Positions 4,483-8,616 are shown, counted from the first letter of the stretch. The stretch: 10,837 bases of DNA from a virus (IMGVR_UViG_2724679236_000003:1-10837); one strand, 5' to 3'. Numbers and translations are program-made. Notes: generated from the letters alone by a model not told the origin.

Positions 4483-5057
4483 CGCTTTATCGCAATCCTC
4501 AGTTGTTGTTTCAGGACGTATTCCAGTTCTTTCGGCAAACGTTCACGCCGTATCTGTTCAATATTCTGTTTAAATGCCGTGGTCAGCGGCACCGCCATCG
4601 GAATTTTCACCACATCAATGGGGTAACGGTTTTTCCCGGCCACACGCTGCATGACATGCCACCGGCCATTTTTCAGTTGCTGAATAAACGCGCCGGGAAT
4701 ACGACGGTTTCCCACCACAAGCACGCTGCCGCCACCTTTCAGGGATGAACGCTGCCCCTTTTTACGACGTCTGCGGCGGGAAAGGACGACCCGCGCGTTA
4801 CCCAGCTTGATTACGGGCAAATCCCCCCGGTTAACCTTGATTCTGGCCTGCGGATTTTTGACCGTGGCCCTTTTCAGCCTGGCCCTTTCCTTTACCAGTT
4901 TTCGCCGCACCTTTGTCTCACGGGCAACCTGTGACGCCGACTGATTCATTGCCGTTGTGGCCACGCGGTTAATGGCCATTGCGGAGGCACCGGGCACCGC
5001 CGTTTTGCTGATACGGCTGAGGTTTTCAACGGCCTGCTCAAGACCTTTTATAGCCAT
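4479..5057 (-). CDS. Z: Tail completion protein gpZ
   Basis: 192 aa, MAIKGLEQAVENLSRISKTAVPGASAMAINRV... matches lambda gpZ as recalled. ATG at 5057..5055 preceded by AGGGGGA. Confidence 0.92.
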   Translation of the reverse strand: MAIKGLEQAVENLSRISKTAVPGASAMAINRVATTAMNQSASQVARETKVRRKLVKERARLKRATVKNPQARIKVNRGDLPVIKLGNARVVLSRRRRRKKGQRSSLKGGGSVLVVGNRRIPGAFIQQLKNGRWHVMQRVAGKNRYPIDVVKIPMAVPLTTAFKQNIEQIRRERLPKELEYVLKQQLRIAIKR

Positions 5058-5433: not shown

Positions 5434-5820
5434 TTATTGCATTCTGGCCAGGCCGCGCTCTGTCATTTCAGCTGCCACACCGACAGAGACACGAAACGCC
5501 GTTCCCGGCAGCACAAATGCCACAGCCTCATCCCGCGTGGCGTGAAGTGCATCAGTATGCAGCGTCACCAGTGCCACAACCGTGACCAGAGCAGCCGTAT
5601 CAGTCACGGTATCCGGCTGCGCTGATACAGCCTCATTTTCATGTCCGGTCAGCGCATTTTCCGGGCTGATAGGGGTATCCTGATCGGCAGTGTCATCAAG
5701 CTCCTCTTCCAGCTCTGCCACACGGAGCGTCAGTTCTTCTTTCGTTCCCCTCAAACTGACATCGCGGTTCAGTTGCTCACCCAGCTCCTGAAGACGGGCA
5801 ATCAGTTCATCTTTCGTCAT
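5434..5820 (-). CDS. FI: DNA packaging / head completion protein gpFI
   Basis: ATG at 5820..5818 preceded by GGAGGAG (rc of 5824-5830); translates MTKDELIARLQELGEQLNRDVSL..., ending ...AAEMTERGLARMQ. The ORF-track start at 5859 is a GTG inside the upstream hairpin with no Shine-Dalgarno, so I use 5820. Confidence 0.82.
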   Translation of the reverse strand: MTKDELIARLQELGEQLNRDVSLRGTKEELTLRVAELEEELDDTADQDTPISPENALTGHENEAVSAQPDTVTDTAALVTVVALVTLHTDALHATRDEAVAFVLPGTAFRVSVGVAAEMTERGLARMQ

Positions 5821-5832
5821 GAACTCCTCCAC

Positions 5833-5858
5833 AGAGAGAAAATGGCCCCGAAGGGCCA
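5833..5858 (-). terminator. Terminator-like hairpin just after the E stop: 6-bp GC-rich stem with UUCG tetraloop, followed by UUUUCUCUCU
   Basis: Plus strand 5843-5858 reads TGGCCC CGAA GGGCCA, which on the minus-strand RNA is UGGCCC-UUCG-GGGCCA. It is followed on the minus strand by UUUUCUCUCU (rc of 5833-5842), between the E stop (5862) and the FI start (5820). Confidence 0.45.
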
Positions 5859-5861
5859 CGA

Positions 5862-6887
5862 TTACGCCAGTTGTACGGAAACGAACTCATCAGGGTCAGC
5901 CAGCAGCATCAGCGGTGCTGACTGAATCATGGTGAACTCACGCGCCGGATCGCCGGTGGTCACCCAGTTTTTCGGGTAACGGGCAGAGGCGTTAATGCCT
6001 TCGCGCTGTGCGTCCGCATCCTGAATGCAGCCATAGGTGCGCAGACCGCGAGCCTGAGTGTTCCCCAGCACCATCGTGTTGTCCGGCAGGAAGTTCTTTT
6101 TGACGCCGTTTTCCACGTACTGTCCGGAATACACGACGATGGCCACATCGCCATACATTCCCTTATAGGACACCGCTTTGCCCAGGTCTTTTACCGCTGT
6201 CTCCAGCTCGGAATGAGAGCCGCGACGGGTATCCAGCTTCTCCCTGACGGCTTTGAAGGAACGGAACAGTGCCCAGCCTTTCGGATCAAACACGATGATA
6301 TTCACCACACCGCTGGCGTTCAGCGCGTAGGCTTCGATATCGTCGGTCGGGTCATACGTGGACTTGTCACGCTTGCTCCACTCCGTGCCGCCGGACTGCG
6401 TGATGTTATTCGCCTCACTGCGGCCCATATCCACCTCAACCGGATCGAAGGCTTCACCGGTCATGGTGTATTTGCCCCTGAGCACGGCAGAAACGGCCTG
6501 CATCTCTTCGACCTGGGCAATCGCCAGATTTTCATCCAGCATATTCTGCCGAATAATACGGCGACGACGGTAAGCCGGGTCAGCCAGGTTCTGCGGATCT
6601 TCATCCGGCAGGCGACGCAGGGTCATCTGCGGATTCACCTCATGCTTGGGTTTGACATAACCCGGCGTAAATTCAGAGGTGGAGCCGCCACGGGATCGGA
6701 TAACCTCACCGGAAACAATCGGCGAAACGTACAGCGCCATGTTTACCAGTCCCGGAATTTGTGAGAGATAGACTTTTTCCGTGGTGAAAGGATAGGTTTC
6801 ACGGAAAAACAGGCGCAGAAACAGCGGATCGAACTTAAAGTGATGCTGGGTCGATGCCAGTAATTCTGCAGTTGTATATACAGACAT
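5862..6887 (-). CDS. E: Major capsid protein gpE
   Basis: 341 aa, MSVYTTAELLA...KFDPLFLRLFFRE(T/S)YPFTTEKVYLSQIPGLVNMALYVSPIVSGEVIRSRGGSTSEFTPGYVKPKHEV... matches lambda gpE closely. ATG at 6887..6885, TAA at 5864..5862. Confidence 0.95.
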   Translation of the reverse strand: MSVYTTAELLASTQHHFKFDPLFLRLFFRETYPFTTEKVYLSQIPGLVNMALYVSPIVSGEVIRSRGGSTSEFTPGYVKPKHEVNPQMTLRRLPDEDPQNLADPAYRRRRIIRQNMLDENLAIAQVEEMQAVSAVLRGKYTMTGEAFDPVEVDMGRSEANNITQSGGTEWSKRDKSTYDPTDDIEAYALNASGVVNIIVFDPKGWALFRSFKAVREKLDTRRGSHSELETAVKDLGKAVSYKGMYGDVAIVVYSGQYVENGVKKNFLPDNTMVLGNTQARGLRTYGCIQDADAQREGINASARYPKNWVTTGDPAREFTMIQSAPLMLLADPDEFVSVQLA

Positions 6888-6897
6888 AAATTATTTC

Positions 6898-6925
6898 CAT
6901 AAAAAAAGCCGCACAGGCGGCCTTT
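6898..6925 (-). terminator. Intrinsic-terminator-like hairpin in the D-E intergenic region: GCCGC-CUGU-GCGGC stem-loop, extendable by A-U pairs, followed by a 7-U run
   Basis: Plus strand 6901-6925 reads AAAAAAAGCCGCACAGGCGGCCTTT, so the minus-strand RNA reads AAAGGCCGC CUGU GCGGCUUUUUUU AUG. It lies between the D stop (6943) and the E start (6887). Confidence 0.5.
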
Positions 6926-6942
6926 GTTGATGAAGGGGAAGA

Positions 6943-7275
6943 TTAAACGATGCTGATTGCCGTTCCGGCAAACGCGGTCCGTTTTTTCGTCTCGTCGCTG
7001 GCAGCCTCCGGCCAGAGCACATCCTCATAACGGAACGAGCCGGACTTGTAGAACGTCAGTGTGGTGCTGGTCTGGTCAGCAGCAACCGCAAGAATGCCAA
7101 CGACTGCACCGTCGGTGGTGCCATCCCACACAACCAGCTTACGGGTAGTGCCATCCAGCATCAGTGGGGTCATTGCAGGCGTTTTCGCACTCAATCCGCC
7201 AGGCGCAATTGCTGTATGAGCCGGATCACTGTTACCCAGCGGCTGGTAATGGTTAAACTCTTCTTTTGTCGCCAT
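6943..7275 (-). CDS. D: Head decoration protein gpD
   Basis: 110 aa, [31 protein letters not shown]...[11 protein letters not shown] matches lambda gpD as recalled. ATG at 7275..7273 with AAGAGG Shine-Dalgarno, TAA at 6945..6943. Confidence 0.95.
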
Positions 7276-7902: not shown

Positions 7903-8596
7903 CCGGGACTGCAGTGTTTCCCGGACATCATCCGGTAGATGGCTGTAGGGGTTGCCATCCACCTTATGGCTGCCGCTGTAAATCAGCGTGATTTCCACAC
8001 CCTGTTTCTCCAGCGCAGCACCGTAATTACTGTGAGCCATCATGACGCCGATGGAGCCTGTCCGGGCGGTCTGCGTGACCAGACGCCGGGAGGCGGCGCT
8101 GGCAAGCAGCTGCCCTGCACTGCAGTTCATGTCATTGGCCAGCGCCCATACCGGCTTTATGTCACGCACACGGGCGATGATGTCAGCGCAGTCAAATGCC
8201 CCTGCCACCATCCCGCCTGGCGTATCCATATCGAGCAGAATGCCGTCCACCATCGGGTCGCTGGCAGCCTGTTGCAGACGGGCGATAATGCCGTTGTAAC
8301 CGGTCATCCCCGAATACGGCTGCAGCGCCCGCGTCCGGCTGACCAGCGTGCCGGACACCGGCAGCACGGCGATGCCGTTCATGACCTGATAACTGCGGGC
8401 CTGTCGTGGTCCGTCATCATCACCGGATAACGCCAGCGTCGCGGGTGCCTCCGGGGCAGTCAGGCTGTCACCGGACACCGCATCCGTCAGGCGGCTGATC
8501 CCAAGCTGGCCTGCAAGCGCACAAAAGAAAACCCGCGCATAGGCGGGTTCAAGCATCAGCGGCTCATTAAAGGCCATGCTGGCAATATGCGGGAGA

Positions 8597-8616
<20 letters not shown>
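7285..8616 (-). CDS. C: Head maturation protease / minor capsid protein gpC (S49-family peptidase)
   Basis: GTG at 8616..8614 preceded by AGGAGGAG (rc of 8621-8628); translates (M)TAELRNLPHIASMAFNEPLMLEPAYARVFF..., matching the lambda gpC N-terminus as recalled. It overlaps the 3' end of B by 20 nt, as in lambda. The ORF-track ATG at 8748 would add 44 residues inside B and is not supported. Confidence 0.85.

Follow-up and report, generated by a model that had tools for sequence, protein, structure and literature searches.

For processive antitermination, the late operon of phage lambda serves as the textbook example, yet the reason why this operon should contain internal terminators is unsettled. 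The question arises anew for a viral stretch of 10,837 nt (hereafter the window, by which we mean the whole of the DNA that was analysed), whose minus strand corresponds to a lambda-type head/tail late operon with the gene order W, B, C/Nu3, D, E, FI, FII, Z, U, V, G. An original prediction, made from the sequence alone, had proposed that the major capsid gene E of this operon is bracketed by two terminator-like hairpins, unlikely to be full terminators on a Q-antiterminated transcript, that could act as RNA stability or processing barriers or as partial attenuators, helping to adjust the output of E relative to its neighbours. Are these hairpins genuine elements, are they terminators, and what would they be for?

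Two hairpins in the gaps around gene E

The window is 92% identical to lambda; over the 1.9 kb around E, identity is 97% with phage PhiR47_2 and 92% with lambda (J02459), and the E protein shares 96% amino-acid identity with lambda E. From W to G, only two intergenic gaps exceed 15 nt, the D-E gap (55 nt) and the E-FI gap (41 nt), and each of them is occupied by a hairpin (Table 1); the original prediction was right about the presence and the place of both, and about the seven U at the end of the D-E hairpin. A scan of the sense strand of the window found no sigma-70-like promoter, which suggests that E is not transcribed from its own promoter, and we have rejected on this ground the idea of a separate E promoter located 3' of the D-E terminator. 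By homology, we infer that both hairpins lie inside a single Q-antiterminated late transcription unit, whose Q gene and late promoter would be located outside the window.

Table 1. Genes and hairpins of the late operon discussed in the text, in window coordinates
Feature	Position	Strand	Sequence or basis
Hairpin inside gene C	8523-8550	minus	GAACCCGC-CUAUGC-GCGGGUUU then UCUUUU
Gene D, head decoration protein, 110 aa	6943-7275	minus	ORF; Pfam PF02924 HDPD, E 5.9e-20; matches lambda D
D stop codon	6945-6943	minus	
D-E hairpin	6901-6925	minus	AAAGGCCGC-CUGU-GCGGCUUUU + uninterrupted U7
D-E hairpin, 5' arm	6925-6917	minus	AAAGGCCGC
D-E hairpin, loop	6916-6913	minus	CUGU
D-E hairpin, 3' arm	6912-6904	minus	GCGGCUUUU
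D-E hairpin, U7 run	6907-6901	minus	uninterrupted
Gene E, major capsid protein, 341 aa	5862-6887	minus	Pfam PF03864 Phage_cap_E, E 1.1e-69
E start	6887	minus	
E stop codon	5864-5862	minus	
E-FI hairpin	5833-5859	minus	GUGGCCC-UUCG-GGGCCAU then UUUCUCUCU
E-FI hairpin, 5' arm	5859-5853	minus	GUGGCCC
E-FI hairpin, loop	5852-5849	minus	UUCG
E-FI hairpin, 3' arm	5848-5842	minus	GGGCCAU
E-FI hairpin, tail	5841-5833	minus	UUUCUCUCU
FI Shine-Dalgarno	5830-5824	minus	GGAGGAG
Gene FI, DNA-packaging protein	5820-5434 (with Shine-Dalgarno 5434-5830); start 5820	minus	Pfam PF14000 Packaging_FI, E 9.2e-46

The D-E hairpin is located 17 nt past the D stop codon and ends 13 nt short of the E start codon. Its stem of 9 bp (5 G-C) and its 4-nt loop are within the range of intrinsic terminators (about 5-14 bp, with a loop of 3-8 nt), its U tail, with a score of 4.97, is also that of an intrinsic terminator, and there is in addition an upstream A tract. 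To score such hairpins we used the classical terminator discriminant, which combines hairpin and U tail, in a home-made version with modern energy parameters that handles perfect stems only and gives approximate values, a hairpin passing when d > 0. The D-E hairpin obtains d = 22 to 26, as compared, on the same home-made scale, with d = 25 and 30 for two lambda hairpins that we take, from their positions, to be tR2 and t-oop, respectively. Both tR2 and t-oop belong to the early region and are experimentally tested terminators; they share with the D-E hairpin a GC stem, a short loop and a U tract. In short, the D-E hairpin looks like a canonical element of the intrinsic-terminator type.

A consensus scanner gave E-FI as a minus-strand hairpin but read the D-E palindrome on the plus strand only; in a separate hairpin scan, the D-E hairpin was recovered in the sense orientation, complete with its seven U. 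The possibility of a bidirectional terminator was rejected, since in lambda the antisense direction of neither hairpin scores as a terminator with the discriminant. An Rfam scan of the whole window gave as its sole hit a sub-threshold match to Leu_leader (RF00512) over the D-E hairpin (6901-6996, minus strand; 29.8 bits for a threshold of 50), which we discarded as a generic resemblance to terminators.

The E-FI hairpin is a cUUCGg stem-loop, a type whose loop is extra-stable, located 2 nt past the E stop codon, with the Shine-Dalgarno sequence of FI coming right after its tail. It had been described as a 6-bp GC stem with a UUCG loop; the UUCG stem-loop is there, but not the six GC pairs, the actual stem of 7 bp being made of 5 G-C pairs, one U-A pair and one G.U pair. 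This stem, too, has the dimensions of an intrinsic terminator. Its U/C tail is interrupted, and the discriminant is variable and lower than for the hairpins taken to be tR2 and t-oop: d is +9 to +20 with the window tail UUUUCUCUC, -3.5 to +10 in lambda, varying with the point at which the stem is cut, and -12.5 in N15. The lambda U tail reads UUGUUUCU and that of the window UUUUCUCU, which is slightly better, and the flanks of the two hairpins also differ.

Comparison of the folding energies with those of shuffled sequences had been suggested as a check. Both hairpins do better than the shuffles, the D-E hairpin with -11.8 kcal/mol (shuffles -6.6 +/- 2.5; z -2.0; 5/200 as good) and the E-FI hairpin with -13.2 kcal/mol (shuffles -5.4 +/- 2.1; z -3.7; 0/200 as good), but they are only modestly unusual, z being only -1.6 for the E-FI hairpin in its 51-nt context. 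The case against chance therefore rests on the gaps, on the scarcity of stable hairpins followed by a T-rich tail (only four on the sense strand over the full 10.8 kb of the window, the D-E and E-FI hairpins among them) and on conservation in relatives.

The same sites in lambda and other relatives

The original prediction left open whether both hairpins are described for lambda itself. The same hairpins are present there, bar one wobble pair: the stem, loop and U7 of the D-E hairpin are identical in lambda and 434, and the only difference in the E-FI stem between the window and lambda is a G.U pair for an A-U pair at its base. Moreover, both sites are annotated as putative rho-independent terminators in the N15 record (AF064539; stem_loops at locus 1463-1487 and 2536-2556) and as rho-independent terminators in the HK225 record (JQ086371; locus 1467-1487 and 2538-2557), and the D-E site is annotated as a rho-independent terminator in the 434B record (6100-6120). 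All these annotated sites coincide with the hairpins found in the window. The hairpin pair is thus not new, being already annotated in the records of related phages. Options of the stability or attenuation type for intra-operon terminators are also already in print in a general form (PMC8022706). This 2020 phage-genome paper, with Casjens as a co-author, describes, for the P22-like phage L, a terminator predicted at the right-hand boundary of the procapsid module, inside the late operon, states that the roles of intra-operon terminators are not known, and proposes two of them, either partial termination or the halting of spurious transcription begun without antitermination (PMC8022706). The case of phage L differs from the present one in that its capsid gene family and sequence are unrelated to lambda E, and in that one terminator is described, not a pair. 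A full-text literature search, which included the hairpin sequences themselves, found no paper mapping or testing the D-E or E-FI sites in terms of 3' ends, read-through or half-life.

E homologues were gathered from annotated phages, from a set with one genome per species, and from IMG/VR; the relatives found in the IMG/VR scan are all at least 95% identical and serve for the study of micro-variation, not of diversity. We called a hairpin stable when it reached -9 kcal/mol or better within 70 nt upstream or downstream of E, and we used 70-nt sense windows as background. Lack of stem conservation among lambdoid phages had been named as grounds for abandoning the original prediction, and the opposite was found: the stems are kept, with a stable hairpin upstream of E in 22/24 non-redundant loci (21/24 with a T-rich tail) and downstream of E in 20/24 (16/24 with a T-rich tail), as compared to 10.8% of the background windows (1.7% with a T-rich tail). 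The enrichment of E-flanking hairpins over background is eight- to fifty-fold; the surveyed loci are phylogenetically related, so that binomial P values overstate their independence, but the enrichment is still large.

Relatives with 56-61% E identity also have a hairpin at each site, but one of quite another sequence, with stems such as CAGGCCACC/GGUGGCCUG, GCGGGGGC/GCCCCCGU, GCCGCC/GGCGGU and AGAGUC/GGCUCU, and hairpins are found at these sites even in alpha-proteobacterial prophages with 31% E identity. Within the alignable lambda/N15 group, the D-E loop exhibits at least ten sequences, with the GCCGC/GCGGC stem and the U7 fixed; the proportion of paired cells is 92% for the D-E stem and 95% for the E-FI stem, and two-sided compensatory changes occur at three pairs in the former and two in the latter. 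We do not rely on this formal covariation as the main proof, for the signal is weak, and the replacement of hairpins in non-alignable relatives is stronger evidence. In 80 close relatives, it is the loops, the flanks and the tail of the E-FI hairpin that vary. Both substitutions observed in the D-E stem keep a G.U pair, and those of the E-FI stem are one A-U to G.U change at the base and one disruptive singleton at the loop-closing pair. We think that both hairpins are very likely selected elements.

They do not behave in the same way, however, when one moves away from lambda. Among 30 loci, 24 have a stable upstream hairpin and 21 of these pass the discriminant (median U-tail score 4.7), whereas a stable downstream stem is present in 25/30 but only 11 of these 25 pass, with a median tail score of 2.2. 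The distant Chi-like phages are without the upstream hairpin and have kept a strong, U-poor stem-loop 3' of the capsid gene. The most widely conserved feature is the hairpin that follows the major capsid gene, found in 5/6 distant phages and in most cases lacking a U tract. As judged from these patterns, the upstream and downstream hairpins are different kinds of element, a canonical predicted terminator in the case of D-E and a conserved stem-loop in the case of E-FI. The fact that the E-FI stem is kept regardless of the U tract and persists in Chi-like phages makes an added RNA-level role, as a barrier to 3' exonucleases, likely. It is known that intercistronic hairpins located 3' of an upstream cistron, such as the REP sequences of malEFG or the hairpin of the puf operon, can block 3' exonucleases and raise the expression of this cistron. 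The E-FI hairpin has the structure of such elements, that is to say, a stable stem-loop directly 3' of a cistron which is kept independently of the U tract, and stabilising hairpins of the REP/puf type appear to be its closest analogue, with the difference that REP elements form a dispersed repeat family and the lambda-type hairpins do not.

A hairpin encoded by gene C

The idea that E is specially bracketed did not survive the analysis. A third conserved hairpin followed by a U tract is present inside gene C, and in lambda sense-strand hairpins are found after B (that is, inside C), D, E, I, J (in the J-lom gap) and lom. No hairpin is present in the 15-nt gap after gene V, which encodes the abundant tail tube. 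The absence of a hairpin after V, together with the presence of hairpins after low-copy genes, indicates that their placement does not track protein abundance.

The C hairpin is located 46 nt past the B stop codon, is encoded by the C codons E-P-A-Y-A-R-V-F-F, and is identical in lambda (core 4487-4502). It is present in 17/19 scanned loci with a lambda-type C protease (17/21 scanned overall), the C genes of these loci having only 55-72% nucleotide identity to the window. The eight hairpin codons CCC GCC TAY GCG CGG GTT TTC TTT have a normalised synonymous entropy of 0.16, as compared to a mean of 0.72 over the remaining 171 columns of C with a conserved residue, and a value as low was not reached in any of 200,000 random draws of eight columns. 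Only one codon of the hairpin varies freely, that of the loop Tyr, and one locus carries a two-sided compensatory change (CCU...CAG). The codons of the U tract, GTT TTC TTT, are frozen, which points to termination or pausing and not to a mere exonuclease barrier. A programmed frameshift at GGGUUUU was considered and rejected by inspection, the heptamer being out of frame and the hairpin lying upstream of it. As far as we could find, this coding-embedded hairpin, a putative terminator, has no earlier description in the literature.

Terminators, tuners or translation signals

Our favoured interpretation, to which we would give a probability of about one half, is that the hairpins are intrinsic (Rho-independent) terminators overridden by the Q-modified polymerase, with the E-FI hairpin also stabilising the mRNA. 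Polymerase without Q, whether it comes from prophage read-through or spurious transcription or arrives before Q acts, would terminate at the hairpins, and the capsid-shell genes would then be silent; polymerase loaded with Q and coming from the late promoter would read through, at little cost for lytic growth. Reading through terminators is an established property of the Q-loaded polymerase of lambda, and such an override would make a strong terminator tolerable right before the gene with the highest expression. The D-E hairpin would fit this scheme best, with its U7, its upstream A tract and its location upstream of the gene needing the highest output. The E-FI hairpin would be a weaker and variable terminator, whose stem-loop most likely also blocks 3'-to-5' exonucleases, in such a way that the D/E segment of the mRNA would outlive that of the downstream genes. 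The invariance of U7 in the lambda/N15 group and the frozen U tract in C suggest that the U tract is under selection, which favours termination over an exonuclease barrier, and a terminator model would account both for this conservation and for the fact that one of the sites can be accommodated within a gene. Two observations argue against a checkpoint dependent on Q. In phage-21-like temperate relatives, the D-E hairpin is weak (d = -23 at locus L005) or absent (locus L045), which suggests that the checkpoint is dispensable in some phages using Q. Post-capsid hairpins are also found in Chi-like phages, which are believed to be virulent; if this is correct, insulation of lysogens would be inapplicable to them.

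The main alternative is that the hairpins tune stoichiometry in lytic growth, acting even in the presence of Q as partial terminators and/or 3'-exonuclease barriers that would keep D and E mRNA above that of the downstream genes. This is possible, but we find it the less convincing of the two. It would explain why D and E are each followed directly by a hairpin, why the post-capsid-gene hairpin, as a rule U-poor in the distant phages, is the one most widely conserved, and why the cUUCGg loop is an extra-stable one. There are also analogues in other phages, T-phi of T7, located 3' of gene 10, and the terminator of the filamentous phage f1, located 3' of gene VIII; in both cases a hairpin comes right after the major coat gene, the downstream genes need read-through, and there is more mRNA for the coat gene, although the polymerase is a different one in T7, no antitermination of the Q type is involved, and there is no sequence relationship with the hairpins described here. 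Partial termination is a published option for intra-operon terminators, the putative terminator of phage L being a case in point (PMC8022706), and inefficient terminators that balance expression have been documented in other phages (PMC9163698). On the other hand, a leaky terminator upstream of E, or partial termination in the D-E gap, would lower the output of E with respect to D instead of raising it. Tuning does not explain either why the abundant V gene has no hairpin and why equivalent lambda hairpins follow the low-copy B/C and I; the hairpin in C, which is in translated sequence, would leave a truncated C mRNA if it were a 3' barrier, and an exonuclease barrier needs no frozen U tracts.

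Two further readings appear to us much weaker. In one of them, the elements would serve translation initiation, the U7 being an S1 enhancer for E kept accessible by the hairpin, and the E-FI tail damping FI by pairing with its Shine-Dalgarno sequence. The U7 does end 13 nt before the start of E, whose own Shine-Dalgarno is weak (GGA/GGGA), the fold of the window does pair UUUCUCU (5841-5835) with GGAGGAG (5830-5824), and we have counted in its favour the conclusion, reportedly reached by Sampson et al. in 1988, that late-gene ratios are set by translation initiation. However, this pairing includes three G.U pairs and is therefore weak; the lambda fold lacks it, and N15-type sequences, in which the tail runs straight into the Shine-Dalgarno, could not form it. 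Neither the stems nor the equivalent in gene C would be explained, and we consider this reading improbable. Even less credit can be given to the idea that the hairpins have no function of their own, being chance palindromes, inherited filler, or module-boundary linkers for the homologous recombination of mosaic phages. Their location at gene boundaries, the modest z-scores obtained by folding single sequences, and the fact that the stems of the alignable group are mostly conserved in sequence, with little covariation, could be understood in this way. Such a reading is hardly reconciled with the eight- to fifty-fold enrichment over background, with the fact that distant relatives have, at these positions, hairpins that differ in sequence, with loops and flanks that vary when stems do not (most stem changes keeping the pairing), or with the synonymous-site constraint and compensatory pair of the C hairpin, and we regard it as largely refuted by the conservation data.

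Coming back to terminators overridden by Q, one can imagine a more ambitious version, in which three "checkpoint" terminators (in C, before E and after E) would keep the capsid-shell proteins unexpressed in lysogens, the post-E stem-loop being in addition a stabiliser of the mRNA in lytic growth. We think that this complete scheme is rather unlikely. If the set of checkpoints were nevertheless real, it might correspond to the avoidance of toxic assembly or of host defences that sense capsids, for example. The present results also have a practical side for lambda D/E display vectors and for cloning, since a functional terminator is probably present in the D-E gap. Finally, they allow a sharper question to be asked about the lambda late operon, namely whether the sites around E are insulators or tuners of expression.

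Readings of the hairpins flanking E

The only Rfam hint at the D-E hairpin, the terminator-type stem between genes D and E, is a match to the leucine operon leader (window 6901-6996, minus strand) that falls below threshold, at 29.8 bits against 50. It covers the 3' end of D together with the hairpin, and we think that it probably reflects just the terminator part of the Rfam model. The consensus terminator scanner gave the D-E palindrome (window 6908-6921) on the plus strand only, with the tail CTTTGTTGAT, and left out the minus-strand reading, which has seven U and is far better; its per-strand listing is therefore unreliable at face value for palindromic stems.

On the other side of E, the window fold pairs the pyrimidine tail UUUCUCU, 3' of the E-FI hairpin, with the FI Shine-Dalgarno GGAGGAG (5824-5841, minus strand). 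This pairing is weak (three G.U pairs), is not in the lambda fold, and is impossible for sequences of the type found in the related phage N15.

Relatives of E and gene boundaries

E genes 91-99% identical to that of the window lie on short, low-coverage contigs in dozens of assemblies whose source organisms are unrelated, among them Chromatium, Kitasatospora, Paenibacillus, Bradyrhizobium, Akkermansia and Corynebacterium. These contigs (L009-L024, L042-L043 and L052-L076 in our survey of E homologues) look like contaminating lambda control or ladder DNA, and not like real prophages. In the related phage PhiR70_1, the D-E-FI segment is matched in two separate pieces, and the annotation beneath the match includes the transposase InsG; this suggests an insertion sequence inside or adjoining the head genes.

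The longest open reading frames of C and V begin well 5' of the lambda-equivalent start codons (window 8748-8597 and 4109-4080, respectively, minus strand), giving apparent overlaps of 152 nt between C and B and of 23 nt between V and U. From alignment with lambda, the true start of C is probably the GTG at 8616.

Hairpins elsewhere in the late operon

Gene C itself contains a terminator-like hairpin with a U tract, whose first nucleotide lies 46 nt past the B stop codon. Among loci with C genes just 55-72% identical to that of the window, its synonymous sites are frozen (entropy 0.16 versus 0.72, with 0 of 200,000 permutations as low), and one locus carries a compensatory double change. The hairpin is without annotation in the records of lambda and the related phage 434B.

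Terminator-like hairpins in gene C and in further lambda gaps
Location	Record	Positions	Strand	Lambda equivalent
Gene C (with U tract)	window	8523-8550	minus	4487-4510
I-J gap	lambda (L170, J02459)	15466-15479	plus	
J-lom gap	lambda (L170, J02459)	18920-18935	plus	
Post-lom gap	lambda (L170, J02459)	19613-19632	plus	

Lambda has three further such hairpins on the sense strand, so that in the late operon the majority of the longer gaps between genes contain a hairpin of this kind; the L-K gap, going by the annotation in J02459, is an apparent exception.
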